Shown here in pieces: positions 37,053-53,224 of a stretch of 64,000 nucleotides of DNA (its first letter is position 1; each line of letters begins with the position of its first letter). The stretch is from an uncultured Gammaproteobacteria bacterium (lineage in GTDB: Bacteria > Patescibacteriota > Microgenomatia > Levybacterales > UBA12049). The position numbers were made by a program, and so were the translations under genes. The stretch spans positions 362,667-426,666 of the forward strand of contig CAZKJM010000001.1 of the NCBI GenBank assembly GCA_964553245.1, read 5' to 3'. A model generated the notes under the pieces. The model was not told the origin of the DNA, made no database searches, and saw only the letters and a list, made by a program, of their open reading frames with translations.

Positions 37053-38861
37053 ATGCCGAATAAATTGTCGTTAAAACTAGACAGGGATAAAATTCTTCGC
37101 AGGATCACCAAGATCTCTATCTTCATCTGGCTGGCATGCATTATAGGCGTCTTTGCAATTATGGGTTATGTTGTGGGTATCAGGAAAGAGCTTTTTGATA
37201 AAGCACCTGATGTCTTCGCCTTCTCTCTCCTCGGGTTAATATTGCTCGGTTGCCTTGCCTTTTTAATCGGTGCAATAGGCATTACCGCACAAATTTTATC
37301 TAAGAGATCCCAGAAGAAACAAAACATCTTTTTATTCCTAATTAAACTGTTCTTTGCGCTAGCCATCCTCCCCCTCTACTTATTGGTCGTTATCATCAAA
37401 CCACTTGAAATCGTAAAGAGACTAAAACAAGAGAAATTAAGAGGTTTATTGAAATCCCTGCGTCCAAAGCTAGTTTTAACGAAATTAGTAGCACTTGTAT
37501 TGGTTTGTGCAATTATTTTACCCATCTGGGTTGTTGGATATGTATCTGTTGGTGCTTTGGCTGCGAACCAGCTAGGTTACATAACAGAGGATATCAATAT
37601 CGTAGGAACTGGTTCTATGTATCCGACTTGGGACAAAGGAACAAAGGGTAAAAGCAACAAGGATCTTGCCAAAGAGATAATTACTACCGCGGGTTTCTTG
37701 CCCTATCCAAACGGCATCGTTATTGGTGGAAAAAGATATCTAGGACATACTCTAGGTAGAGGTGACATTATCACCTGGGAAAATGATGCTACAAGAGAAC
37801 TTACAAGTAGAGACGGAGCAAACCCTGCGGGATTGTTAAAAAGAATCATGGGGCTTCCAGGAGACACAATCGAACTTAGAGACGGTATTGTTTATCTCAA
37901 TGGCGAGCCACAAAAAGAGCCATATATTGCCAAACCGCGCTCAACATTCGGGGAAAAGTTTCTAAAAGAATGTCAGGCAGTAACTGTCCCTCAGGATGCA
38001 ATCTTTGCTATGGGCGACAACCGAAAAGGTAGTTCCGACTCAAGAGAAATTGGCTTTGCTCCAATAAAAGACATCCGCCTAGTCCTTCCTCTGGAAAAAC
38101 AGAAGGGAAAGCTTGATAAGAACTGGCACGACGCAACCAATGACTTATCAGACACAGTAAAACCAACAATAGACAGAAACAGGTTTGTCGAGCTACTTAA
38201 CGAAAAACGCAAAGAGAATGGCGCAACTCCAGTGAAATACGAGCCTAAACTTGATGAATCTGCAAAAATACGAGCAGAATCTTTGTTAAAGAATAACGCT
38301 ACTCAACAACAAGCTTCTTACGATGTCGTTTCAAGTGCAATGTCAAAAGCTGGGTATTGGAACAGCTATGTGTGGGAATGGTCGTTAGAGGGTTATTACA
38401 CTGCTGACGAGTTAGTTGAAGACTATCTCGAAAGAGATTCAACAGATGCTAAAAATGTGTGGTTTGATAAAAAGTTTGACGATGTGGGGATTGCAGAAGT
38501 CCAAGGCAACCTAAACGGATGCCCTACACAGCTTATTGTTGTCCATGCTGCTGGCTACATCCCTCCAAGCTATAAGAAAGAGGATATTGAGTCTTGGAAA
38601 ACAAGCCTATCAAGGCTACGAGAAATTCAGCCAAGCTGGTCAAGTCTCAAAAACAACTCAGGTTTCTACGAAAAAAACAAGGCAGATGTTGATAGAATCA
38701 ATGAGATAATTGGAGTAAGAATTGCTAATATTTCAGTAATCGTTTCCAAGATGGAAGCTAATCAGTGGTTAAGCGCTACCGAACAGAGGATGATCGATCA
38801 GGATAAACCTCTGTATGACGAGCAGGAAGCCATAGCAACCAGGCTTAACAGCCAACATTAA
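37053..38861 (+). CDS. Polytopic membrane protein fused to signal peptidase I (S26) domain and C-terminal CAP/SCP-like domain
   Basis: Approx 5 N-terminal TM; S26 boxes GTGSMYPT (Ser), KRIMGLPGDTIELRDG, GDNRKGSSDSRE; C-terminal ~230 aa with NVWFDKKFDDVGIAEV ... TQLIVVHAAGY reminiscent of CAP/YkwD fold (low confidence for CAP part). Confidence 0.55.
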   Translation: MPNKLSLKLDRDKILRRITKISIFIWLACIIGVFAIMGYVVGIRKELFDKAPDVFAFSLLGLILLGCLAFLIGAIGITAQILSKRSQKKQNIFLFLIKLFFALAILPLYLLVVIIKPLEIVKRLKQEKLRGLLKSLRPKLVLTKLVALVLVCAIILPIWVVGYVSVGALAANQLGYITEDINIVGTGSMYPTWDKGTKGKSNKDLAKEIITTAGFLPYPNGIVIGGKRYLGHTLGRGDIITWENDATRELTSRDGANPAGLLKRIMGLPGDTIELRDGIVYLNGEPQKEPYIAKPRSTFGEKFLKECQAVTVPQDAIFAMGDNRKGSSDSREIGFAPIKDIRLVLPLEKQKGKLDKNWHDATNDLSDTVKPTIDRNRFVELLNEKRKENGATPVKYEPKLDESAKIRAESLLKNNATQQQASYDVVSSAMSKAGYWNSYVWEWSLEGYYTADELVEDYLERDSTDAKNVWFDKKFDDVGIAEVQGNLNGCPTQLIVVHAAGYIPPSYKKEDIESWKTSLSRLREIQPSWSSLKNNSGFYEKNKADVDRINEIIGVRIANISVIVSKMEANQWLSATEQRMIDQDKPLYDEQEAIATRLNSQH

Positions 38862-39046: not shown

Positions 39047-41629
39047 ATGAACAACTTATATCAACAATTAAAATCAGATGTAATTAACTGGAGACAGCAG
39101 GGTTATCCCTCCTCCTATCCCGTCATTGCAACCGTTCTCAACTTCAACAAAAACAACTTTCTAAGACAAGCACAGTTTGAAGCCTTAGAAACTTACTGGT
39201 ATCTGCGCCTAGTTAAGAACACTCCAAATATCTTTGAACTTTATAAAGGGTATTTTCAAGGCAAAGACCTACTCAAAGCCCTGGGAATATCATTATCAGA
39301 AGAAGACTTAACCGATCTTTTGCTAGCTGGCGGCGGACTAGACTCCATTATCGAGAAAGTTAGGACTGATGATACCTTTGTTAAGAAATACAGGCTAGAA
39401 GCCCTTAGAGAAACCCTTACACTTCCATATCCCAGCTACATCCTCGCCCTGGCGATGGGAGCGGGTAAGACAATTCTTGTTGCCTCTATTATAGCCACCG
39501 AGTTTGCTATGGCACTTGAATACCAGGAGAAAGACGGGATCTTTGTCAGGAACTCCCTCGTCTTTGCACCAGGAAAAACAATTCTAGGAGCATTGAAAGA
39601 AATTGCCGATACTCCCTACGACAAAATCCTACCCGCACGATTCTATAAGTCCTTCATCACCAATGTAAAGTTTACCTACACTAGAGATGGCGAAAAGGAT
39701 ATTCCCGTTATTAGAGGCAGTTCCTTTAATGTAATTGTCACTAACACTGAAAAAATCAGACTACAGAAAAATAGCATTCCTAAGTCATTCCTGGGCACAC
39801 AATTGAGCCTAGGATTAGAAGAAGCCAAAGAACTTGTTGCCAACCTGCGCTTACAATCAATCACCTCCCTACCACACTTGGCAGTCTTTTCAGACGAAGC
39901 CCACCACACTTACGGACAAGCTCTCGCCGAGGATCTCAAGCGAGTCCGCCAAACCATCAACTATATAGGCGAGAAAACTAACCTTCTGGCAGTTATTAAC
40001 ACAACAGGCACACCTTACTATCAACGCCAGCTTTTACGAGATGTTATCTACTGGTATGGACTCTCTCAGGGCATTGAAGACGGCATCCTTAAAGAAGTCC
40101 GAGGCAATATTGTCGCCTACAAAGAGGTTTCAGAGGAAGACTTTGTTATCGATATCGTCAAAGACTTTTTCCAGGAATACAAAGATGTGCGAGTTAATAA
40201 CGGCGAATATGCAAAACTGGCAATCTACTTCCCCCAGGTTGACGACCTAGACCAAGCCAAGCCGATTGTTGAGCAAACACTTATCTCTCTGGAACTCGAC
40301 CCATCAATTGTCTTACCAGTCCATAACAAATCTCCAGAAGACATCAAAGATCTTTTTGACAACCGTATCAACGACCCGCACCTACCTTACAGGGTGTTTC
40401 TGCTAGTTAATAAAGGCACTGAAGGATGGAACTGTCTATCTCTTTTTGCGACTGCTCTGGCGAGAAAACTCTCCTCAAGTAATAATTTCGTGCTTCAGGC
40501 AGCCAGCAGATGTTTAAGACAAGTGAACGGCAATACCAAGAAAGCCAAGATTTATCTCTCCAAAGCCAATGTCTCGGTGCTTGATCGCCAGCTGCAGGAA
40601 ACCTTCGGAGAAGGTTTAGATGACCTTAACCGCGCTAAGACCGACACTTATCCTGTTAAAATTACCCTCAGAAAGCTTGAGATTGAACCCGTTGTTATCA
40701 AGAAGCTCATCCAAAAGATTGTTCCCGAAGACGATACTTCTACCGCCTTGAGGGTCGAGAAGCCCAAATCTGACGCTGTAGCGGGGCTTGAGAAAACTAT
40801 TTACACCATGTCCAAGACCCAGAGGAAGGGCGTCCTGGTCGAGGTTGATAGCGAAAAATCAAAACCCAGAGATGTAAAGGTTGATCTATATCAGGCAGCA
40901 GTCCTGCTTGCCCACACTTATCGCCTTGATTCCCTAGAGATCTTCAAACTCCTTACTCCTCTCTATCATGACGGAGAAATGTCAGTTGTCGACCTGGAAC
41001 TTATCCGACTGCAACTAGAAAAACAGGTTATCAGATACAAAGTTACCACTGAAACCGTTGAAGAAGCCCTGGCGCTTATTAAAACCAAAGGCTTTGAGGA
41101 AGAAGTCGAAGATGGCAAGACCTCGTATGTCACCCATATTAGAGTCAATAAGGACAACCTCGAAAAGTATGTTTTAGATACCAATGCCTACAAAAAGAAG
41201 GCTGGTCAAATGCCTTTGTTTGGTTTTCATTACGATCCATACAACTTTGATTCAGAAGACGAGCGTGCCTTCTTTGAGCAAATGTTGGACAAACTCGGCG
41301 AAGACCCAGATAATGTTGAAGATATTTACTTTACAGGAGCGCTGACAGACAGGGAGAAAACCGATTTTGCGTTTGAATATAAAGACAATAAAGGAGACTG
41401 GCACTCGTATACACCTGACTTTTTGATCAGGAAAAAGGATGGCAAGTCCCTTATAGTCGAAGTCAAGGGCAAGCCATACAGGAATGAGGCGGCAGAGAAG
41501 GAAATGAAACAACTAGAGGCGATAAATCCTGATAAAATTAGATATGAACTCCTGCTCTTAGAGGAAGGCGAATCGGTGTTTGGTAAAGTAGCACCAGTCT
41601 TTAATTGGATTTACCAAACCCAAAAATGA
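39047..41629 (+). CDS. res: Type III restriction endonuclease Res-like subunit (SF2 DEAH helicase + C-terminal PD-(D/E)xK nuclease)
   Basis: Walker [17 protein letters not shown] box VFSDEAHH, motif [11 protein letters not shown]-terminal TPDF...LIVEVKGK nuclease motif. Confidence 0.65.
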
Positions 41630-43515
41630 CTATGACAAACGATACAACCAAAAAAATTAAAATCGGCACACCAAACGGCAGACCCATGCTAACCTGGGTG
41701 AACAAGAAACCCCTTGAGTCAGTTACTGGCTATCCCACACAACTTACCGAGAGTTTCGGAGATAAAGAGGCACTTAAAGTGCCTGAATACAACAAGCTAG
41801 AAAAGAACTGGCACAATCTCCTCTTCCACGGCGATAACAAAGAAGTCCTCGCCTCCCTCCTAGAACAAGGATTCAGAGGAAAAGTTGATTTGATCTACAT
41901 CGATCCTCCTTTCGCAAGCAATAAAGATTACATGCGGAATATTGAACTAAGAGGTTTGAAAAACCTGGGACAAATTGAAGAAGATAGTGAATCTATTATT
42001 CAACAAACGATGTATGAGGATATTTGGAAAAGAGATGAGTATTACCAATTCATGTATGAAAGACTAATTTTGTTAAAGGAATTACTTTCAGAAAACGGTG
42101 TTATTTATCTCCACATCGACTACAGAGCCGCTCATTATATGAAAGTTCTTATGGATGAAGTTTTCGGTGAAGATAACTTCCTAAACTCACTTGTCTGGAT
42201 GTTTTCGACAAGAAGTTCCATCAAAACAACCTGGAAAAGAACTCATCACGATATTCTTCTTTACAAGAAACATGGTGATCCTGTTTTTAACTGGAATGAC
42301 GAAATGGTAATTGAACCCCTTTCTGAAAGCACGATCTCAAAATACAAGTATGAAGACGAAGTTGGTAAATATAGGCTAAACGGTAGGAATATCAAAGGAA
42401 GTCCGATTAAGAGCGCAAAAGATGTTGATCCAAAATGGGAAGAAACAAACCCAGAATGGGTGGTAAGAGATTACTTAAGGGGAGGTAAAGTAGCCAGTGA
42501 TTATTTTTTCATCGAGATAGAAAATCAGGCATCAAAAGACAGAACTGACTACGCAACACAAAAACCAGAAGAATTACTTTATAAACTTATTTCTGCTTCC
42601 TCAAAGCCAAATCAACTAGTGTTAGATTGCTTTGTTGGCTCTGGAACAACCTGTGCTGTAGCTCAAAAACTTGGTAGGCGATGGATTGGTGTTGATGTCA
42701 ACAAGGGAGCTATTCAAGTAACCAGTAAGAGATTACAGAAAATTATTAAGGAACAAAACAAAAAACTTCTTGACGGACAAATTAGCAAAGCCTTTGGAAT
42801 CTATAAGGTCAACAATTACGATCTCAGAATTCTAAAAACAGAGGCTAAGGAACTGGCAATTCAGCAATATGGAATCACCAGGACAAAAACAGAGGCTTTC
42901 TTTGATGGCTTACGGGATAGTGGTGAGCTGGTAAAAATCATCGATTTTAATCACCCACTTACGCTCCTAGACCTGCAACTCATCAAAGATGAACTCGACA
43001 AACGACCTGACGAAGACAGGGATATTGTCGTGATCTGTCTAGGCAGAGAAACAAAGGTAGATTCCTGGGTTGAGGAATGGAACAAAAAGCAACCTCACAA
43101 AGACGCGCGCACCAGTCGCCGCATGAGGCAATTCGTCGTCTTTGATCTTAAAGACAAGAACTTTGTCAGTTACGAGCCTTCCAAAGCTGAAGTGGAAATT
43201 ACCAGAGCGGGCAAGAATAAAGCAAAAATTAAAGTTACTTCCTTTATTTCCCCCACTATCATCAAGCGCTTGGAGCTTGAACCAGGATTGCTGCAGAAAA
43301 AAATTCCAGATTTCAGATCAATGATTGATGTCGTCTTGGTTGATACCAACTACGACGGCGAGGTGTTCAAAATTGGCTTCTCTGATGTCCCAGAGAAACA
43401 AAACGATCTGGTCAAAGGAGAATACGAACTTGAGATAACAGAAAAACCAACCAAAGCGGCAGTCAAAATCATTGACATGTTAGGAGAAGAAGTCTTGGTT
43501 ACCAAAGAAGTGTAA
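41605..43515 (+). CDS. mod: Beta-class (motif IV before motif I) DNA methyltransferase, type III Mod-like
   Basis: [13 protein letters not shown]...[18 protein letters not shown] (motif IV DPPF) followed by [26 protein letters not shown] (motif I); 25-nt overlap with res. Confidence 0.65.
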
Positions 43516-43546: not shown

Positions 43547-43572
43547 GACTGCCCTTAATTGGGCAGTTTTTT
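43547..43572 (+). terminator. Rho-independent terminator after mod
   Basis: CTGCCC-TTAATT-GGGCAG hairpin followed by TTTTTT. Confidence 0.55.
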
Positions 43573-43580
43573 GTAGAAAT

Positions 43581-44126
43581 ATGGCAAAAAATCAAATAAC
43601 AACAAACAGCGACAAACTCATCTTTGAGGAAATCAAGGAACGGCTAAAAGATCAGCTTGATTCGGTAGACAGTATGGATACAAAGGCTGGGATAGTCCTC
43701 GGCTTTAATGGAGCAATTTTAGCTGCCCTACTTAACTCCGACTGGTTTAGAACTCTTCCAATTTACTTCTTAGGTTTCATCTTGTTGGCAATTTGTGTGA
43801 CAACTGGAGTTGCCCTAAAAGCATTTCTCGTCAGAGCTTATAAAAAAGACCCAGACCCCTCGAAGTTAATCGAAGGTTATCAAGGAAAAAAAGAAAATGA
43901 GACACGAGGGCAACTAATCAGAAACTTTGAGAAGTGTTTCAATAACAACAAAGAAATGATTGAAAACAAGAAGAAATATATAAATTGGAGTTTTAAGCTA
44001 TTGGCTTTAACTGTAGGGATCGTTGCATTTGTTGCTCTTATAACAACTTTTATTAACAACGCAAATTATTATTCTCCATGGAGAATGCATAGACAGGAGG
44101 TGACCAAACATGGCAGATTCAGATAA
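43581..44126 (+). CDS. Small membrane protein (2 adjacent TM + third C-terminal TM) with cytoplasmic helices, SLATT/abortive-infection-effector-like topology
   Basis: 181 aa; TM at approx 36-52, 58-82, 136-160; topology only, no sequence motif. Confidence 0.4.
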   Translation: MAKNQITTNSDKLIFEEIKERLKDQLDSVDSMDTKAGIVLGFNGAILAALLNSDWFRTLPIYFLGFILLAICVTTGVALKAFLVRAYKKDPDPSKLIEGYQGKKENETRGQLIRNFEKCFNNNKEMIENKKKYINWSFKLLALTVGIVAFVALITTFINNANYYSPWRMHRQEVTKHGRFR

Positions 44127-44334
44127 CACACAACCACAACCAAGCCAACAAGTTAATACAACACCCACCCCTCCTGCGCCAGAACCAAGCAACATACCGC
44201 CAAGCGCAGATCAAAACCTATCCTCGACAATGAATAAAGGTTTAACTCCAAACTCGAGTATCTCAGCTAAACCCGATGTTTCATTGAATTCGACGAAAAC
44301 TATGAACGAGGACGGCTTGAGGATAACCAAATAA
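44110..44334 (+). CDS. Pro/Thr/Ser-rich low-complexity small ORF, in frame with downstream 1141-aa ORF (separated by TAA-TAT-ATG)
   Basis: 74 aa; may be non-coding or an N-terminal extension if stop is read through/erroneous. Confidence 0.2.
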   Translation: MADSDNTQPQPSQQVNTTPTPPAPEPSNIPPSADQNLSSTMNKGLTPNSSISAKPDVSLNSTKTMNEDGLRITK

Positions 44335-44337
44335 TAT

Positions 44338-47300
44338 ATGATCGATTTATACCAAGGTAAGCTCGATAACCAGAAAATTAAACAAAAAATAAGAAGGCGC
44401 AATTACTCAGGTAATTACAAGCCTTCCGAATCATTGATACAAGATATCATTGAGCAATTTTGGTTTCACGATCATTACAACAGTCTTATATCTGACGAGC
44501 TTTACCTTAGCTTTTTACTTAGTTACCTAAAAAGTACTAAACCTCGCGAATTCAGTCGATACGATTTCTATAAATTCATTTTTGATCAGATCGATAAGGA
44601 ACCTAGTGGAAGAGTAATTTTGCAGCAGATTGCTCTTGCGTTTGAGAAACAGATGAGCGATGCAATGCTACCAGATGACTACACTACCCTCTTACAAGGT
44701 GTTGGGAATATACCAGATGGTAAATTTGACGCTTTGTGGATGGATAAAAATCACCTCGCGAAGATAGGGAAACGGGACGAGAAAGAATTATTCATTTGGG
44801 AACATCACACTTTAACCGAGTTTTTAGTTGCTGAGAACTTAGTTAACCAAGACGAGAAAGTTATTGAGGAATTTCAAAAGTTAGCAATCTTAAAACACGA
44901 GGGCGTAACTGCTTTCAAGCCGTCTTGGTCTGGTGTTTTGCGTTTCCTAATGGAATCTGAAAAGGGTCAGAAGACAATTGTATGGTTTATGGACTTTCTG
45001 GAAAAACATCCAGACAATTTAGATGACAACCTGGCAGAACTATTGGTTTACGAGATAAAAGGTCAAGCCTCAAAGTTGGGACAAAGAGTTTTTAATCTTA
45101 TTTACAATTCTTACTTTGACAAGGTAACCTGGATGCCAATTTGGGCAAGAGTCAGTTTATCAAAGTTCGTTGATAAACAATCATATGAACGATTAAAAAC
45201 CGACATCAAGGTTTGGTCTAATAAGACTGAAACTTTTGTGCGTCGAGGGAATGTCGTTTCAATCGTGGAAGGGTTACTAAAAGATAAAAATAAATTAGTT
45301 AGTGCAAATGAGAGAAAGTTCTGGCTCTCAAAACTAATTGAGTTTGCTAATAGTCCAGACGATGATGGAAATGGCGTTTTACAAAGACATAGCCTGGGAG
45401 CATTAGCTCAATATAAAGACGAGAAGATCATACCCAAAGTAGCACAGAAGTGTTTCAAGGAAACACGAGAATCCCTAGTTAGAGATGAGTTTACAGAATT
45501 CTGTATTGCTACCAATCCAAATTCCGAGGAGGCTATAAACTATTTTATTGAAGGAACTCCAAGTATTTACGCCCGTCATGGACTTTATCAAATCACTTCA
45601 CAAAAAGGAATTGAATATTTCCTTTCCAAGATTGTTGAAGATGAAAACTTTTTGAGGGTATTTTTGGACAAAGAAAGTATCTTTGATGAGGATGGTAGCG
45701 ATAAAAAACTCATTAATAACATTAAAAGACATGTTAACAATAAAGTGATTCCTTTATTGAAGAAACTCATTTATACCGTCATGCGGATAAGTGATTATTA
45801 TCATGAGGGACAATCCAGCTTTCTCCGTCAGATAATCCAATTAATAAACGGGCACGAACCTCGTTATCTATTTGAGATGTTGACAGACATAAAAAATGAA
45901 AACGATGAACAAAAGATAGATAGACTTTTTTGGGATTCAAGAGAACTGCTTGCACTTGCTTTAACCAAAGAAAATGTAAAAGAATACTTTGACTTTCTTA
46001 AGGATTTCCCAGACAGAACAAAAAGGGATGCACAATCTGTCGTTTATAGCGCGAAACGACTGAATGGAGTAGTTGGCGACCATGTCTATCAAGAGGCAGT
46101 TAGGCTGAAACTTGTTAAAAAAATCGACACAAGGCAATCAGAGAAATACTACGAAAAACAGGAGAAACAACGGAAACAAGGTATTTACAAGAGTTTCCTC
46201 AAACAACTCGAGTCAAAGCCAGGACAATATCTAACAAGTGTGTTTGAATACTTCACAAAAAACAAAGAGGAAATCAAAAAACAGTGGAAAGCTAACGATC
46301 AGAAAAAATTATGGAAAATAGCGATAGAAATAGGCATTAGAAAAATCAACCCGCGTGAATTTAAAGTAACACTCTCAAACAGGAAAGAAGGGAATAGCTC
46401 CTTCACCTGGAGCGCACCAGCATCATATTATGGCGATTTACTCAAAGTTGTTCAGGAATTAGCTCCAGAAGAAATTGAAAAATATAGACAAAACATCATT
46501 GATTATATTCCCTACGAATTCGATACAGGCGCGCCAGCAGATTTCATTAAGCAATTAGACGATAAAGATTTGGTATGGGTTAATCAGATAATGAGTGACC
46601 AGAGCGATGATCGTCGTTATCTCATACCACAAACTTATATTTATTTAGTTAGTGAATATGCTAAAAATGGAAGCAAACTTACTACAGTTAAACCAGTTCT
46701 GCAATCCTTTATTACTGATCCAAATATTCGAGACTATGTTCAGCGTTCTGCTCTTGAAGCCATCGCTTTCTTTATTGATAAAACCGACAAAGAAACTAAA
46801 AAATTACTCAAGGATATCTGCGCACATTCCAAAGACCAAGAGCTTGTCGAAATAGCAAATGGTATTTTGATCAGTATTTACGAAGATGAAAAAGCTATTG
46901 ACTGGCGCTTTGCAAAGGTTAAAGAACCGTTGGAGTTTCAAAGAGTCGAGGGGGTTCATTCAGTTGGTCGCGTTGAAGAAGAGTTGATGAGTATGTCCTT
47001 AGCCAAACCATTAATGGAATTAGGTGATGAAAAATACTTACCTAAATTCCTTGACTTATTAGAGTACTCGTTCAAGTTTACTGAAGGGAAAAGCGATAAG
47101 AAATATTGGGAATATGTTAACTACCTTTGGAAAACAGCAACACAGTTTGTAGACGGACTTAAAAGAAAGGGGTCATTTATCCCCCTTATGGAATTAGAAG
47201 GTTGGATCGAGGAACATTCTCAATACGAGAACATTAACTGGCTCGAGGCTCGTATAAAAGAGATTAAAAGAAATTATCTTAATCTCGTACATCCTTTTGA

Positions 47301-47763
47301 TAAATTAATAGACGGGATCGATGAACTCGGTAAGGTCAACTCGCCCACAGCTCAAATCGCTTTGTTTTTGTTTAAGGCACAACTTGTTGAAACAAGATTG
47401 CGAGAACTGATCTTAGGCATTAACTACTTTCTACAGAAGAAAAATAGCAAACTGCCGATTTATAGAAAAATTAACAGCGAAACCAGGAAATGGATAAAAA
47501 ATTTGACACTAAGTAAATTGTGTGAAGAGTTAAATAACTATCAAAGTGCATCGGTAGAAAGGTTAAAGAGTAAGTTAGGGCAATTTGCCCACTCCGAAGG
47601 AAGAAATAGATTTAACCATGAATTGTTTAATCAGACTAAGCCCGTGCAAGAATTAGCAGAAGAAGCAAAACAATATACAAAATTTGCTGAGGAAAGTTTA
47701 GACTTGATCCACAAGGTGTGGGAAGAGATCCTCTCTATTAGCACAAACAACTCGACAAACTAG
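44338..47763 (+). CDS. Large alpha-helical repeat protein with post-NACHT-like motif (FIWEHHTLTEFLVAENLV) but no Walker A; candidate STAND-derived/defence-associated protein
   Basis: 1141 aa; no GxxxxGK[ST] anywhere; motif F-x-H-x-T-x-x-E-F-L-x-A-x-x-L at aa ~150 resembles the helical region following NACHT NTPase; remainder HEAT/TPR-like helical repeats. Confidence 0.45.
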   Translation: MIDLYQGKLDNQKIKQKIRRRNYSGNYKPSESLIQDIIEQFWFHDHYNSLISDELYLSFLLSYLKSTKPREFSRYDFYKFIFDQIDKEPSGRVILQQIALAFEKQMSDAMLPDDYTTLLQGVGNIPDGKFDALWMDKNHLAKIGKRDEKELFIWEHHTLTEFLVAENLVNQDEKVIEEFQKLAILKHEGVTAFKPSWSGVLRFLMESEKGQKTIVWFMDFLEKHPDNLDDNLAELLVYEIKGQASKLGQRVFNLIYNSYFDKVTWMPIWARVSLSKFVDKQSYERLKTDIKVWSNKTETFVRRGNVVSIVEGLLKDKNKLVSANERKFWLSKLIEFANSPDDDGNGVLQRHSLGALAQYKDEKIIPKVAQKCFKETRESLVRDEFTEFCIATNPNSEEAINYFIEGTPSIYARHGLYQITSQKGIEYFLSKIVEDENFLRVFLDKESIFDEDGSDKKLINNIKRHVNNKVIPLLKKLIYTVMRISDYYHEGQSSFLRQIIQLINGHEPRYLFEMLTDIKNENDEQKIDRLFWDSRELLALALTKENVKEYFDFLKDFPDRTKRDAQSVVYSAKRLNGVVGDHVYQEAVRLKLVKKIDTRQSEKYYEKQEKQRKQGIYKSFLKQLESKPGQYLTSVFEYFTKNKEEIKKQWKANDQKKLWKIAIEIGIRKINPREFKVTLSNRKEGNSSFTWSAPASYYGDLLKVVQELAPEEIEKYRQNIIDYIPYEFDTGAPADFIKQLDDKDLVWVNQIMSDQSDDRRYLIPQTYIYLVSEYAKNGSKLTTVKPVLQSFITDPNIRDYVQRSALEAIAFFIDKTDKETKKLLKDICAHSKDQELVEIANGILISIYEDEKAIDWRFAKVKEPLEFQRVEGVHSVGRVEEELMSMSLAKPLMELGDEKYLPKFLDLLEYSFKFTEGKSDKKYWEYVNYLWKTATQFVDGLKRKGSFIPLMELEGWIEEHSQYENINWLEARIKEIKRNYLNLVHPFDKLIDGIDELGKVNSPTAQIALFLFKAQLVETRLRELILGINYFLQKKNSKLPIYRKINSETRKWIKNLTLSKLCEELNNYQSASVERLKSKLGQFAHSEGRNRFNHELFNQTKPVQELAEEAKQYTKFAEESLDLIHKVWEEILSISTNNSTN

Positions 47764-47874: not shown

Positions 47875-48747
47875 TTAAAGCTTATCGATGTCCCAGCCCT
47901 CATTGTCGTAGACGGCAATTTGACCACCTTGAGTAATAGTGAGACTAACCATTGGGTAACGAGTTGACTTGGTTTTGAGACACCAGACACCCTGATCGTT
48001 CTGGTAAGCACCTTCGCGGGTATTGTCAGCATCCCCACATTCCTCAAACTCCTTGGTGAAGGGTTTGGTGTAGTCATACCACTTTACAAAGAAATTACCT
48101 GGTTTTGTGCCTTCGAACTCGTAAGTCATCTTGGTGATATCAACACCAAAAATATCCTTATGCTTAGTCATGAAGTCCTCAGCTACCTTGCGGATCTGCT
48201 CCTTAGTGGTATAGCGGGGAGTATTGTCATATTCAGGCATATTTTCGAACCAACGAGTGCCGTCATCCTTAGTCCCCCAGCGACGCTCGGCTTCACCTAC
48301 CTCAACAATGTAATTTGTCTTAGGATCGATAGTGAAACCAAACCGAGCAGCTTCGTAGTGTTCTGAGGCGGGATTATTATAATCAGTTCCACTCTCGTCA
48401 GGCTTGTTATTAAATCGACTACAGAGGAATTCTACAGGAATATCAGACATACCTAGGAACTCACGGATATTAGCGATAGCTTTTTCCCTTTCAGCAACAG
48501 GGCGCGCAGTTAACAAGCAAAACTTCTGTTGAGCTTCTTGATACTCTTGAGAGTCCTTATTAGGGTTCTTGCTCATAATAGCCAGAAGCTCAGAAACCTC
48601 TTTGTCCTTAGTGTTTTGTTGCACAGTCTGAATGACTTTTGATTTAGTAAGGAAGCGAGGAGCTAGAACAACAACTAGGACAGCAAGCACAGAGAGGAAA
48701 ATAATAGCGGGAAGAATCCGAGATTTATTTTTATGTTTCATTATCAT
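47875..48747 (-). CDS. Membrane-anchored exported protein of unknown function
   Basis: N-terminal TM ILPAIIFLSVLAVLVVVLA then soluble Cys-containing domain. Confidence 0.45.
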   Translation of the reverse strand: MIMKHKNKSRILPAIIFLSVLAVLVVVLAPRFLTKSKVIQTVQQNTKDKEVSELLAIMSKNPNKDSQEYQEAQQKFCLLTARPVAEREKAIANIREFLGMSDIPVEFLCSRFNNKPDESGTDYNNPASEHYEAARFGFTIDPKTNYIVEVGEAERRWGTKDDGTRWFENMPEYDNTPRYTTKEQIRKVAEDFMTKHKDIFGVDITKMTYEFEGTKPGNFFVKWYDYTKPFTKEFEECGDADNTREGAYQNDQGVWCLKTKSTRYPMVSLTITQGGQIAVYDNEGWDIDKL

Positions 48748-48887
48748 TTTTACCTCCTCTTGGTTAAATTAATAACTTTACCCTAGAGGTGTTGCATATT
48801 AACTTCGTTGAGGGGAGATTGTCAAATCAAACCAAAAAGCTCCCCCCAGCGATGACTTGCGTCACCTGCCACCCTTTCGGGAGACAG

Positions 48888-48926
48888 CCTCGTGAGCGCT
48901 CTAGGGAGAGCTTATTGCTCACGAGG
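48888..48926 (+). other. Nested hairpin element: CCTCGTGAGC [GCTCT-AGGG-AGAGC] TTATT GCTCACGAGG
   Basis: 10-bp perfect outer stem plus 5-bp inner stem, in 440-bp intergenic region. Confidence 0.45.
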
Positions 48927-49115
48927 ACTTGTTTAACCATGCCCATTACTGGGTTTAGGTCGTTAGGGATATTTTACCAATCTTAGAGGAAATAAGAAAT
49001 AACAATCAGAAATAACTAAAAGTGGAGATAATGTGAGCAAAAGTTAACTTGACTTTATATCTTTAATTTGTTTGAATGAGAATAGATTTAGGAAGTAAAG
49101 CCTAACGAAACGATC

Positions 49116-49189: not shown

Positions 49190-49435
49190 ATGAATACACT
49201 TAATAACGATTATTACTCAACCAGCGACCTCTCACTGGCTACCACCCTCTCTCTTTGGTGTCCTATTGAAGATATTGACCGATCAAATCCCCGTAAGGCT
49301 TTGTTCATTTTCCAAAACACAGGAAAGCTTCAAGAACTTGTTGCTGAGTATTACCGCGACGAAATAAAAATATCGCCACAAGTTTATTTCAACCAATTAC
49401 GAGTCGTGAAGGCGCGGCTCTATGCCAATGGATAA
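49190..49435 (+). CDS. DUF5659-like small protein
   Basis: 81 aa; STSDLSLATTLSLWCPIEDIDRSNPRKALFIFQNT...ELVAEYY pattern recalled for DUF5659 (mobile-element associated). Confidence 0.4.
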   Translation: MNTLNNDYYSTSDLSLATTLSLWCPIEDIDRSNPRKALFIFQNTGKLQELVAEYYRDEIKISPQVYFNQLRVVKARLYANG

Positions 49436-49620: not shown

Positions 49621-49974
49621 ATGACAATCACAATTAATGACATTACCGTTAAAGTCAAATTGCTTAAATCCGACACCATCTTAGCTCAGGCAACAGTAAT
49701 ACTCTTCGATATTTGGATAGAGCATGGTTGGAAAATCCTAAAGTCAGATCGGCTTCATCCCCAATTACAAGACTATGTTTGGATTCAAGCTCCTAGTTAT
49801 AAATTTATCGGTAAGTGGAACGAAATCGTTTTTATTGACGATAGCAAGCTGTTTGATCAGGTTGTGGAGAAGGTCTACGACGCTTATCACCTTGCCAGAA
49901 GCAAAGATCCTAATTACGGAACCAAAGAACCTGTACCAACAGAGGAGGTAAACCTAGATGACATCAACATATAA
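49621..49974 (+). CDS. SpoVG-like protein
   Basis: ITINDITVKVKLLKSDTILAQATVILFDIWIEHGWKILKSD...VWIQAPSYK resembles SpoVG (ITDVRLR...AIASITLD..FVVHDIRVIDG...FVAMPS). Confidence 0.35.
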   Translation: MTITINDITVKVKLLKSDTILAQATVILFDIWIEHGWKILKSDRLHPQLQDYVWIQAPSYKFIGKWNEIVFIDDSKLFDQVVEKVYDAYHLARSKDPNYGTKEPVPTEEVNLDDINI

Positions 49975-50522: not shown

Positions 50523-50625
50523 CGGTAAAACTGCTCCATATTGACGCCAAAATGACTCCAACTATTGGGGTCTTTAGCTTGATATTCCTTAAATGTTTGT
50601 TTATGTTGTGTGTTGCAAAATAACT

Positions 50626-52233
50626 ATGAAAACTGCCATATTCTGCCGAGTAAGCAGTAAAGAACAAGAGGAAACAGGCTACTCCCTGCCAGCCCAGGAA
50701 AAGTTCTTAAACGAGTATCGAGACAAGCGTGGGTTTGAATCGGGAAAAGTATTCTCCATCTCTGAATCCGCGAGCGGAAAGAAACAAAGACAGTTATTCG
50801 ACCAGATGATGGCGTATGTCAAAAAAACCGATACGAAAATCTTAATCTGTGAGAAGGCAGACCGAATGACTCGCAATTTCAAAGACATGGTTATGATCGA
50901 TGAATGGCTTGAGGAAGACGAGGAAAGAGAAGTTCACCTAGTTAAAGACTCTCTTGTCCTTAATAAGAATTCCCGCTCCCAAGAAAAATTAAACTGGGGT
51001 ATCCGTATCCTATTTGCGAAAAACTACATAGACAACCTATCCGAAGAAGTAAAGAAGGGACAAAAAGAAAAGATTGCCCAGGGGTGGCTACCAACCAAAC
51101 CGCCAAACGGTTACAAGACCATTGGTGAGACTGGGCATAAAATCCATGTCATCGACGAGGACACCGCTCCTTTTGTGAGGAAAATGTTTGAACTATATCT
51201 CACAGGCAACTATTCAACTAAACGGTTATCCAAGAAAATGTATGCCGAGGGCATGAGATCGCAATTAGGGCACAAGCTTCCACACAGCAGAATCCATTCC
51301 CTGCTGCGTGAACCTTTTTATATTGGTAAAATTAAATGGAACGACGAGTTGTATGAAGGTAAACATCAGCCGTTGATTACCGTCGAGCAATTTAATAAAG
51401 TCCAGGCTATGCTTACTAGCAGAACCACACCCAAATACCGCAAGCACAATTTCCTCTTCCGAGGGCTTATCAAATGTGCTGGTTGCCACAACTCAATCAC
51501 CTTCGAAACGGCTAAGGGTCATATTTACGGTCATTGCAACCATTACCATGAATGCCCACAAACAACCTGGGTCAAGGAATATGAAGTTGAAGATCAGCTT
51601 TTAGAAGGCTTTGAAACCTTAAAAATCCAGAATGGTCGTATTGTTGATTGGCTTAAGAAGGCGCTCAAGGAAAGCCATCAAGACGAGGTTGAATATCACA
51701 ACAGCACTGTTAGCGAGCTTGAAGCCCGCTATGAAGCGGTGCAGAAGCGATTGGACAAATTGTATGACGATAAGCTCGATGAGAAAATCACTTCAGACTT
51801 CTACAACAGAAAATTCAAACAATACTCAGATGAGAAAGACGAGGTAACTGAGTCTATAAAGAAACACTCCCAGGCAAGCACAAGCTACATCAACTTAGGA
51901 GTGAACCTCTACGAGCTTTCACAGAGAGCCAAGGAGTTATACCTGCAAGCGAGAGCTAAAGGCATGATAGATGAGCAAAGGGCATTAATCAGGTTTATCT
52001 TCGCCACATTAACGGTTAATGAGGGAAAACTCAGCTATACCTACAGCAAGACATTTAAAATCCTCTCTGAGGCAGTCGAAGCGACCAACGGTTCGAAAGT
52101 GGATAAAACAGACGACTTGGAAAATAAAAAATTCGAACTTACAAAAAAGCCCGACAGTTCAACACAAAAGGACGCTTTGTTGCCTCTGCGTCCCATCTGG
52201 CTCCCCCGCGAGGATTCGAACCTCGAACCTTGA
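50626..52233 (+). CDS. Large serine recombinase (resolvase catalytic domain + recombinase domain + zinc ribbon); 3' end overlaps 3' exon of tRNA-Asn
   Basis: N-terminus MKTAIFCRVSSKEQEETGYSLPAQ (catalytic Ser), central recombinase domain, Cys cluster CAGCHNS...CNHYHEC; start taken at ATG 50626 (track ORF from 50593). Confidence 0.75.
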   Translation: MKTAIFCRVSSKEQEETGYSLPAQEKFLNEYRDKRGFESGKVFSISESASGKKQRQLFDQMMAYVKKTDTKILICEKADRMTRNFKDMVMIDEWLEEDEEREVHLVKDSLVLNKNSRSQEKLNWGIRILFAKNYIDNLSEEVKKGQKEKIAQGWLPTKPPNGYKTIGETGHKIHVIDEDTAPFVRKMFELYLTGNYSTKRLSKKMYAEGMRSQLGHKLPHSRIHSLLREPFYIGKIKWNDELYEGKHQPLITVEQFNKVQAMLTSRTTPKYRKHNFLFRGLIKCAGCHNSITFETAKGHIYGHCNHYHECPQTTWVKEYEVEDQLLEGFETLKIQNGRIVDWLKKALKESHQDEVEYHNSTVSELEARYEAVQKRLDKLYDDKLDEKITSDFYNRKFKQYSDEKDEVTESIKKHSQASTSYINLGVNLYELSQRAKELYLQARAKGMIDEQRALIRFIFATLTVNEGKLSYTYSKTFKILSEAVEATNGSKVDKTDDLENKKFELTKKPDSSTQKDALLPLRPIWLPREDSNLEP

Positions 52234-52478
52234 AGTTACACTTAATCTCCGATTTTCATCGAAGCGTGGACTATCTCATAGCCATATCTTCTTCAGATTT
52301 AGGCTCCAGGCGTATAGTCTCTGAACCTTCCCCGATATAATCGAGACTTGGCTGCGGATTACCTCGCATTTCTGCAGGGGCTTCCCGACAATTAACCCAG
52401 TTTTCACTCCGATGTTTCCATCGAAGGCTGCAATTTCAAATACTACAGCTTCCTGCTCTACCATTGAGCTACAGGGGA
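52198..52478 (-). tRNA. tRNA-Asn(GUU) interrupted by a ~206-nt group I intron in the anticodon loop (exons complement 52445-52478 and 52198-52238, CCA encoded)
   Basis: Exons give UCCCCUG-UA-GCUC-AAUGGUA-GAGC-A-GGAAG-CUGU/UAA-CUUCA-AGGUU-CGAGG-UUCGAAU-CCUCG-CGGGGGA-G-CCA; U1:A72, G73 and loop CUGUUAA as in bacterial tRNA-Asn. Confidence 0.7.
52239..52444 (-). ncRNA. Group I self-splicing intron (no ORF)
   Basis: Contains AAUCCGCAGC (Q), GUUCAGAGACUA (R), AAGAUAU..AUAGUCC (S), P-like AAAUGCGAGGUAA; P1 pairing GAAGCUGU with GCAG(C)CUUC gives U.G at 5' splice site; last intron nt is G. Confidence 0.7.
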
Positions 52479-53224
52479 ATATCTGCTATTTTACCATCAA
52501 ACAGAGCAAGAATCCACCCCATAATTTTACGATGTATCATGGAATCACTAAAGCGAATAGTAAAAACGCCATACTTGTGAATGTTTTTTCTAATTTTTTT
52601 AGTATCTTTTTTTATTTTAGCGATATAAGTTTTATTAAACTGATTTAGCGGAATTCCTGTCAATTTTGACCAAAATATTTTTGCCTTTTTTTCATCTAAT
52701 TCTTCATGAATCCAAATCACTCCTCTAATTCTATCTGGGGAAATCTTGGTAAATCTTAAAAACCATTGCATCATAAATTTAATCAACAGAGGGTCGGAGT
52801 TAGCAAATCCTACATTATGATCTCTTTTGGTTCCCTCAGCCGCATATAAAGCAACCCCTGCTATAAAGCTTTCCCTATCATTTATTTTTCCTATGTCTTT
52901 TCTTGCCTCTTTTCTTGCCTTGTTCGTCTTGAGTATTCTTTCCTGGCGCTTATTTTCAGCAGCAACCAAAGACCCTCTCTTCTGACCAAACATTTTATTA
53001 CTTAAAAGTCTTAATTTTTGTTTTTCAGTCAAAGAAATATCTTTACACCAATCACTTAAGGTGCTTTTTTGCACATCAATCTGCCGTTGAATTTCTCCAT
53101 AAGACAAACCTTGCCTTCTTAATTCTTGCGCCTTTAATTTATCTTCCAATCTACCAAAATAGCCCATTAATTTAATCTTAATCTGCGAACTATCAAAAAA
53201 CAAGTGAGTAAGGATATATACCAA
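52469..53224 (-). CDS. HTH-containing protein with a single LAGLIDADG-like motif (possible homing-endonuclease relative), abutting 5' end of the intron-containing tRNA
   Basis: HTH SYGEIQRQIDVQKSTLSDW; ESFIAGVALYAAEGTKRD resembles a degenerate LAGLIDADG; AT-rich like host genes. Confidence 0.3.
   Translation of the reverse strand: MVYILTHLFFDSSQIKIKLMGYFGRLEDKLKAQELRRQGLSYGEIQRQIDVQKSTLSDWCKDISLTEKQKLRLLSNKMFGQKRGSLVAAENKRQERILKTNKARKEARKDIGKINDRESFIAGVALYAAEGTKRDHNVGFANSDPLLIKFMMQWFLRFTKISPDRIRGVIWIHEELDEKKAKIFWSKLTGIPLNQFNKTYIAKIKKDTKKIRKNIHKYGVFTIRFSDSMIHRKIMGWILALFDGKIADIPL

Follow-up and report, generated by a model that had tools for sequence, protein, structure and literature searches.

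Introduction

Immunity by STAND (NLR-type) proteins is thought to depend on a switch controlled by nucleoside triphosphates (NTPs). In bacteria, the bNACHT and Avs proteins unite sensor and cell-killing effector in the product of a single gene, and are encoded in defence islands or on mobile elements. A further group, including DSR2 and Dsr1, is formed by large single proteins in which an alpha-solenoid sensor is joined to an effector enzyme, while a STAND NTPase is absent. DSR2 was shown to bind the phage tail tube protein via its alpha-solenoid (PMC11850899, PMC11263360), and the sensor of Avs7 has been identified also in Dsr1 and in a HEPN protein, representing the reuse of a STAND sensor without the NTPase (PMC13581612). 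Here, three adjacent genes are described, which are located at 43581-47763 in a stretch of 64,000 nucleotides of contig CAZKJM010000001.1, referred to as the window, and which code for proteins of 181, 74 and 1141 amino acids. In an earlier note, made from the sequence alone, they had been proposed to form one defence-type module composed of a small membrane protein, a Pro/Thr-rich protein and a STAND-like protein lacking its NTPase.

The three open reading frames (ORFs) were found as the note had stated, all on the forward strand. The first gene (43581-44126) encodes a 181-aa protein of the PycTM family, the second (44110-44334) a 74-aa protein rich in serine, proline, threonine and asparagine, and the third (44338-47763) the 1141-aa protein, a predicted sensor-effector derived from STAND proteins without an NTPase, which is called the large protein in the following. 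With moderate confidence, the three genes are regarded as two adjacent, separable defence-type modules on a serine-recombinase island, namely a single-protein sensor-effector and a PycTM pair; the same degree of confidence covers the view that the P-loop core was removed from the ancestor of the large protein in one event.

In comparison to the bNACHT and Avs proteins, the large protein is homologous across the helical and winged-helix region that follows the P-loop and across the whole repeat sensor, and it shares with them the combination of a sensor and a (here predicted) cell-killing effector, the encoding by a single gene and the location in islands. It differs by the missing P-loop core and by the position of the effector, which is C-terminal or encoded downstream instead of N-terminal. 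Even from its sister group of NACHT proteins it can be distinguished by a motif, which is FxN in the sister group and WxHH in the clade of the large protein. None of the PADLOC models for Avs or bNACHT proteins matched the large protein. With DSR2, Dsr1 and the HEPN protein carrying the Avs7 sensor, it has the single large polypeptide, the alpha-solenoid sensor, the (predicted) enzymatic effector and the absence of a STAND NTPase in common. In contrast to the large protein, which keeps a strongly conserved helical and winged-helix part, those proteins contain no remainder of the nucleotide-binding oligomerisation domain (NOD), and their effector, SIR2 or another, is N-terminal. No sequence similarity to them was detected and a SIR2 domain is absent from the large protein, so that the architectural logic alone is common to both. 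For the 181-aa protein, the closest system is Pycsar, since the PycTM models are matched along their full length and both the size and the layout of transmembrane (TM) segments agree; however, a PycC cyclase is replaced here by a conserved partner of 65-81 aa and a variable third gene.

Descent of the Large Protein from NACHT-Type STAND Proteins

A word-indexed search identified 92 homologues of the large protein, nearly all of them from metagenomes of Patescibacteria, the candidate phyla radiation (CPR). In a full scan of 1.84 billion cluster representatives with a hidden Markov model (HMM), 476 sequences were obtained at E <= 0.001. Two architectures are present in this family. Proteins of about 965-1230 aa begin where the large protein begins, while proteins of about 1310-1435 aa contain approximately 170-200 additional N-terminal residues with the sequences GEPGxGK[ST] (Walker A) and LDGLDE (Walker B). 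The relatives of about 1350 aa are built from a P-loop, a helical solenoid and a C-terminus similar to restriction endonucleases (REases). One of these, L016, passes the Pfam NACHT model with 38.1 bits at a cut-off of 26.7, and the nearest PDB sequence to its NTPase region is NLRC4, by a weak match.

The large protein aligns colinearly with the NACHT-bearing relatives, from its residues 9-56 onward and from their residues ~165-255, and its N-terminus begins exactly at the end of their P-loop core. The alignment spans an IQIPRYLSLL-type motif of the helical domain, the invariant arginine R74, the winged-helix motif and the sequence PSWxxVLxFL, and extends across the entire solenoid to about residue 984. 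In the winged-helix region, FIWEHHTLTEFL of the large protein aligns with IEFDNxEFQEYLAA of the NACHT-bearing relatives, and the longer FIWEHHTLTEFLVAENLV with IEFDNxEFQEYLAAKE. On this basis, residues 1-~209 (44338-44964, +), which align with residues ~180-400 of the relatives, were assigned to a remnant of the NACHT module composed of the helical domain and the winged helix. The winged-helix motif itself, FIWEHHTLTEFLVAENLV, comprises residues 152-169 (44791-44844, +) and is conserved in the family in the form WxHH[TS]xxE[FY]L, with E161 invariant and W154, H156 and H157 nearly so. The motif which the earlier note had pointed out as following NACHT domains is thus present as stated; the claim that it is the only recognisable feature of the protein did not hold, since a C-terminal HEPN-like domain, a predicted effector, had been overlooked.

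The absence of the NTPase, also claimed before, was found at several levels. Walker A is missing from the large protein, the pattern [GA]x4GK[ST] occurs in no frame between 36 and 53 kb of the window, and an HMM of the NTPase core of the relatives gave no match in the 64-kb window (best E = 0.6). Walker A is absent throughout in 127 of the 129 NTPase-less family members. When 197 near-full-length sequences were arranged in a neighbour-joining tree, 125 of the 127 without an NTPase fell into one clade, in which no NTPase-bearing member is placed; this clade, which branches off the family of NACHT proteins of about 1350 aa, comprises at least 125 cluster representatives, mostly from metagenome-assembled genomes (MAGs) of Patescibacteria. 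An NTPase that is split off and encoded nearby was considered and rejected, as neither the window nor the 10 kb around the NTPase-less loci contains a gene for an NTPase core.

Of the features which define STAND and NACHT proteins, the P-loop core with Walker A, Walker B and sensor 1 is therefore lacking in the large protein. A repeat sensor and a separate effector domain are present, as seen from the structure model and from the C-terminal types of the family, and the helical and winged-helix domains that follow the NTPase were identified by sequence comparison only. The colinear NACHT relatives, the pure NTPase-less clade and the missing NTPase-core genes show the large protein to be a STAND protein minus its NTPase, and by its sequence it clearly descends from bacterial NACHT-type (NLR-type) sensors, the ATPase switch of which it has lost. 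This agrees with the earlier note. The N-terminus is conserved, and the protein belongs to an old and diversified lineage and is not a pseudogene.

A literature search gave no paper describing this family. The sharing of STAND sensors by proteins without an NTPase has, however, the precedent cited above, which the earlier note had missed, and the NTPase-less clade widens this recent observation. Here, the switch has been deleted, the winged helix and the sensor are kept under selection and the effectors are exchanged, which provides a natural experiment on the need for the NOD module. In addition, the genes are candidate defence genes in Patescibacteria, the immune repertoire of which is poorly known.

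Structure Model and Alpha-Solenoid

The AlphaFold2 model of the large protein, calculated with the family alignment, has a predicted local distance difference test score (pLDDT) of 87.6 and a predicted template modelling score (pTM) of 0.73. It is almost wholly helical, with an N-terminal helical region that is followed by a long alpha-solenoid and, at the C-terminus, by a further helical domain; short beta hairpins are located in the N-terminal region at residues 141-154 and 184-193. The presumed sensor is the HEAT-like alpha-solenoid of ~770 aa, at residues ~210-984 (44965-47289, +), which was assigned from the model and a weak match to Pfam HEAT_2. This weak match was also the only one obtained for the large protein in Pfam, NCBIfam and PADLOC, and a sequence search of the PDB gave none. 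PADLOC 2.0 contains no model for the large protein, and the NACHT relatives show only a weak NTPase match there. A PADLOC run and a Foldseek comparison of the model had been suggested in the earlier note. The former retrieved the PycTM homologue and the Type III restriction-modification (R-M) genes of the island and left the large protein without a match, and the latter returned for the whole model only generic HEAT/ARM solenoids, such as CAND1, karyopherins and SF3B1, with TM scores of 0.15-0.24, and was uninformative on the end domains.

As the fold matches are eukaryotic solenoids and HEAT_2 is the only profile found, the large protein might be seen as a housekeeping HEAT-repeat protein with an incidental position on the island. 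This is considered very improbable in view of the patchy distribution of the family, its association with mobile elements, the ends swapped between TIR, REase and HEPN-like domains and the homology to NACHT-REase proteins.

Exchangeable C-Terminal Effectors

The C-terminal ~155 residues of the large protein (residues 985-1141; 47290-47760, +) form a HEPN-like domain, the predicted effector, which in relatives is swapped for a TIR or REase domain or is missing. A separate model of this domain has a pLDDT of 86.7. The sequence RNRFNH at the end of the penultimate helix (47602-47619, +), identified from the alignment and the domain model, contains an invariant Rx4H (R1089 and H1094), and a further invariant residue, E1018, is located in the long second helix, followed by a helical insert. 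All three residues are invariant among sequences down to 37% identity. The placement of E1018, the insert and Rx4H in the model appears to fit the layout described for HEPN domains (PMC3710099), and the invariance of Rx4H is as expected for a member of this superfamily. The HEPN RNases described in that work are effectors of abortive-infection and toxin-antitoxin systems; the domain of the large protein, in contrast, matches no HEPN profile, either in Pfam scans of 20 members or in a profile search of PDB sequences, and its activity is putative. Foldseek of the domain against the PDB gave nothing useful, and its profile retrieved only three fragments from a set of 5.8 billion proteins; as far as these searches go, the domain is confined to this family. 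From its sequence and model, it is proposed to be HEPN-like and a probable RNA-cutting effector.

Alternatively, the domain could be a non-catalytic helical bundle used for oligomerisation or partner binding, which would make the protein a scaffold or regulator. This is considered rather unlikely, since the R, H and E expected of HEPN proteins occur without variation at the corresponding positions and the domain fills the slot which in relatives is occupied by TIR or REase domains.

For the remaining members of the family, different C-termini were identified. Among the NACHT-bearing forms, 68 of 74 end in a common REase-like domain (KRxDF...IExK). The 129 NTPase-less forms comprise 88 proteins ending at about residue 1000, 24 with the HEPN-like domain, 11 with a TIR domain and a few with an Mrr-type REase; a TIR_2 match of 29.1 bits was obtained for the TIR fusion in P0076 and an Mrr_cat match of 24.4 bits for the REase fusion in P0140. 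At the loci of short forms without a fused effector, seven of eight have an ORF on the same strand which overlaps or abuts the stop codon. Of these seven coupled ORFs, three code for REase-like proteins, one for a TIR protein (TIR_2, E = 3.4e-11) and two for proteins that end in a TM helix, and one is of unknown type. No such coupled partner is present downstream of the three TIR-fused forms. The occurrence of the same parts in fused and split versions is characteristic of a sensor whose effectors can be exchanged.

Three of the downstream partners (L012 12924-13766, L015 3564-4337 and L021 12937-13974) appear by eye to have a similar N-terminal region, near [FL]L[FIY][YC]LG[IFL], while their ends differ, with a TM helix in two and a TIR domain in one. 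This similarity suggests a common adaptor domain, by which different effectors may dock onto the sensor.

Genomic Neighbourhood of the Large-Protein Family

The commonest neighbour of the family is a homologue of the large serine recombinase, present at 10 of 32 loci. In L012 and L013, a Type I R-M operon directly precedes the family member, and homologous R-M genes were detected at a distance of less than 6 kb in L022, L025 and L027. A Type I methylase-specificity fusion is encoded upstream in L005. Further neighbours are PLD-like nucleases and other methyltransferases, and a TIR-type member adjoins genes for a relaxase and a coupling protein.

The backbone of the island is common to the window and to a locus from a Woesebacteria MAG (L001, 13703-18923). 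It consists of the large gene, a divergent gene for a secreted or TM-anchored protein of 257 or 290 aa, a DUF5659 gene, a gene for a 117-aa protein and the serine recombinase; in the window, the genes downstream of the large gene are located at 47875-48747 (-), 49190-49435, 49621-49974 and 50593-52233. The cargo upstream of the large gene differs, with the R-M genes and the PycTM pair in the window and a helix-turn-helix (HTH) gene in L001. This neighbourhood is that of a defence island or mobile element, which falls short of functional proof.

The position on mobile islands and beside conjugation genes could also be read in the opposite sense, with the NTPase-less protein serving the mobile element as a decoy or dominant-negative form that blocks host NACHT sensors of the same family, and thus as an anti-defence protein. 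Such a role would fit the loss of the switch domain with retention of the sensor and the winged helix, and the absence of a fused effector from 88 of the 129 NTPase-less forms. It is nevertheless judged improbable, as an effector-like gene is translationally coupled to the large gene at seven of the eight loci without a fused effector, the TIR, HEPN-like or REase domains present in the other forms have retained residues of a catalytic type, and the neighbours are R-M systems.

The PycTM Homologue and Its Small Partner

The 181-aa protein matches the PADLOC model for PycTM with E = 1.4e-11 over profile positions 7-157 of 160, and is a homologue of an abortive-infection-type membrane effector, in line with the topology pointed out in the earlier note. 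It is composed of an N-terminal cytosolic helical part and two to three TM segments. Two of the three segments counted previously are strongly hydrophobic (residues ~59-84 and 137-160), while the third, at residues ~36-55, is weaker. In the precomputed Pfam annotation, PF18967 (PycTM) was assigned to the 181-aa protein and to 18 homologues; a live scan with Pfam-A did not give PF18967 for any of these 19 proteins at E <= 10, a discrepancy that is taken to be a difference between the libraries. A literature search on DUF5706 and PF18967 retrieved nothing. No cyclase domain was identified in the ORFs of the island or in the called genes around the PycTM homologues, in about 20 contexts, and because of this the locus is not regarded as a Pycsar system.

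The 74-aa ORF had been described as Pro/Thr-rich, which is correct for its composition (11 P and 9 T of 74 residues) but incomplete, as 11 S and 8 N are present in addition, and it turned out to be a conserved gene. Its start overlaps the stop codon of the PycTM gene by 17 nt, and its end is separated by 3 nt from the ATG of the large gene. Its Shine-Dalgarno sequence, AGGAGGTG, lies within the 3'-terminal part of the PycTM gene (44095-44102, +), 7 nt before its own ATG. The elements AGGAGGTG or GGAGGTGA are present in the window and in the closer relatives, and GGAGGTGA was found also in L039. A small ORF of 65-81 aa, with an overlap of ~17 nt and in-frame insertions and deletions, comes after the PycTM gene in all of the homologues examined. 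In the small proteins, the C-terminal half is conserved and seemingly contains two similar segments of ~17 aa (IPPSADQNLSSTMNKG and ISAKPDVSLNSTKTMNED in the window). The ratio of nonsynonymous to synonymous substitution rates (dN/dS) of the small ORF is 0.07-0.11 at dS values of 0.9-2.2, which corresponds to strong purifying selection. On the basis of the conserved position, the in-frame indels and the low dN/dS, the 74-aa ORF is a real gene and the partner of PycTM. The PycTM membrane effector would here be employed without a cyclase and together with a small, previously unannotated partner.

In the alignment of the PycTM homologues (alignment A3), the C-terminal tail RQEV[IT]KHGRFR is conserved. 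The corresponding nucleotides, 44081-44126 in the window, also contain the Shine-Dalgarno sequence of the small ORF as well as its first codons, so that two reading frames are constrained in this segment.

One System or Two Modules

The earlier note had treated the membrane protein and the large protein as parts of one system, in which the large protein could sense the infection and activate the PycTM effector, while the 74-aa protein would serve as an adaptor or a regulator. This view draws on the tight operon, with translational coupling by the 17-nt overlap and the 3-nt gap, and on the same arrangement in L032-L036 and L047. Furthermore, a defence-type gene follows closely after every PycTM pair, and the junction of the type stop-NNN-ATG is preserved although the third gene differs.

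When homologues of both parts were followed across genomes, the pairing did not prove general. A PycTM homologue was absent within 10 kb at all 31 genome loci that were found by homology to the large protein, and also from L049. Where the pairing exists, in L032-L036 and L047, all the large proteins are 79-94% identical to the one in the window. At more distance, in L001 (72% identity) and L003 (69%), a gene for a 62-aa HTH protein takes the place of the PycTM pair. The same HTH gene precedes PycTM in L047, and because of this the pair looks like an insertion between a regulator and the sensor.

Conversely, the PycTM gene and the small ORF precede four unrelated third genes. Besides the large family, these are an unrelated 806-aa protein in L038-L041, L043 and L044, a DUF5677 protein in L045 and L046, and a YaaC-family protein in L048. 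The 806-aa protein (L039 1536-3956) has no match in Pfam or PADLOC; it contains a zinc-ribbon-like stretch (CxxC...CxxC) and a C-terminal REase-like motif, GECKTFG. The possibility that the YaaC, DUF5677 and 806-aa proteins share the effector of the large protein was rejected, as hhalign with the C-terminal profile revealed no similarity. A HEPN assignment of the YaaC family was likewise dropped, as no confirmation of it was found in PMC3710099. In two further contexts, L037 and L042, an insertion sequence (IS) element (HTH_Tnp_1 and rve) is located after the PycTM pair.

The PycTM pair is thus not a defining component of the system of the large protein. Together with the large family having its own fused or downstream effectors, these gene orders make a single three-gene system rather doubtful, and the reading of two separable modules is preferred. 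The stop-NNN-ATG junction is preserved ahead of two different third genes, which speaks for co-transcription, and the modules may cooperate in this lineage, any cross-talk between them being putative.

Several points weigh against the two-module reading with a STAND-derived sensor-effector. The tight coupling of the three genes could mean that they act jointly in this lineage. A promoter scan of the trio identified no promoter, the candidate sites being no commoner than in shuffled sequence. The large protein matches no known defence model in PADLOC, NCBIfam or Pfam, and the profile of its N-terminal remnant had no match among PDB sequences, the assignment of the remnant being based on sequence. 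Moreover, the HH motif is strongly conserved without a nucleotide-binding domain, which this reading leaves unexplained.

Proposed Mechanism

In the two-module reading, the first module (44338-47763) would be a single-protein sensor-effector for abortive infection that operates without an NTPase. The solenoid may bind a phage protein, as the presumed trigger. By analogy to the NACHT-REase relatives and to NTPase-less solenoid sensors such as DSR2 and Dsr1, binding might relieve an autoinhibition or drive oligomerisation without an NTP switch. The HEPN-like domains would then assemble and cleave RNA, and the infected cell would be arrested or killed. The second module (43581-44334) would encode a membrane-permeabilising toxin of the PycTM type, regulated by the translationally coupled 74-aa protein. 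The latter is probably disordered and, speculatively, could act as a labile restraint or tuner of the toxin. This pair seems to move as a unit ahead of different defence-type genes, and the toxin may fire once a shut-off driven by the host or by an effector depletes the small protein.

A more far-reaching combination can be put forward only tentatively. Here, the large proteins would constitute a CPR-centred, switchless NLR-like clade in which the HH remnant has become a new device for regulation or oligomerisation, with HEPN-like, TIR, REase or membrane effectors as plug-in parts, and the PycTM pair would at the same time be a cyclase-independent killing module with the labile small protein as its brake.

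Other Features in and around the Window

The island corresponds to a stretch of ~40% GC at ~36-53 kb, while the rest of the 64-kb window has a GC content of ~30%. The defence-island setting claimed in the earlier note was borne out by a Type III R-M system directly upstream of the trio and by a serine recombinase on the island. The res gene (39047-41629, +) encodes a protein of 860 aa with a C-terminal endonuclease-like domain (Pfam ResIII and Tn7_TnsA-like_N, PADLOC REase_III), and the mod gene (41605-43515, +) a protein of 636 aa (Pfam N6_N4_Mtase, E = 1.9e-44; PADLOC MTase_III, E = 1.2e-61). Both have the features of a Type III R-M system and are regarded as context only; the genes for the 181-, 74- and 1141-aa proteins match no R-M model. 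Between mod and the gene of the 181-aa protein, a terminator-like hairpin (43547-43568) with a T-run was found at 43547-43578 (+), with an 8-bp stem including five G-C pairs, as a consensus match only. The large serine recombinase (50593-52233, +) is a protein of 546 aa with the Pfam domains Resolvase, Recombinase and Zn_ribbon_recom.

No tRNA was identified in the window by ARAGORN, either at the end of the island or elsewhere. At the right edge of the island, a group I intron (RF00028; 52247-52454, -; 76.3 bits) adjoins a 251-aa ORF (52469-53224, -), which is LAGLIDADG-like by eye; the intron overlaps the region where the serine recombinase ORFs end. Possibly, the gene interrupted by the intron was the integration site. 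The ORF at 37053-38861 (+), located where the high-GC stretch begins on the left, codes for a 602-aa protein with multiple TM segments, in which a signal peptidase S26 domain (E = 1.3e-24) is combined with a weak CAP/SCP match, an unusual fusion. The Rfam LOOT RNA motif was detected at 48851-48961 (-), with 77.8 bits at a gathering score of 46.4. It is located just upstream, on the reverse strand, of the gene for the 290-aa protein (47875-48747), which converges on the large gene.

On the contig of the closest relative, L032, the R-M operon is preceded by genes for proteins of 214 aa (1030-1674) and 216 aa (174-824, -). The 214-aa protein shows a weak Pfam HEPN match (E = 0.0013) and the 216-aa membrane protein a weak 8xMP match, which suggests that the island of L032 may carry further defence-type cargo.

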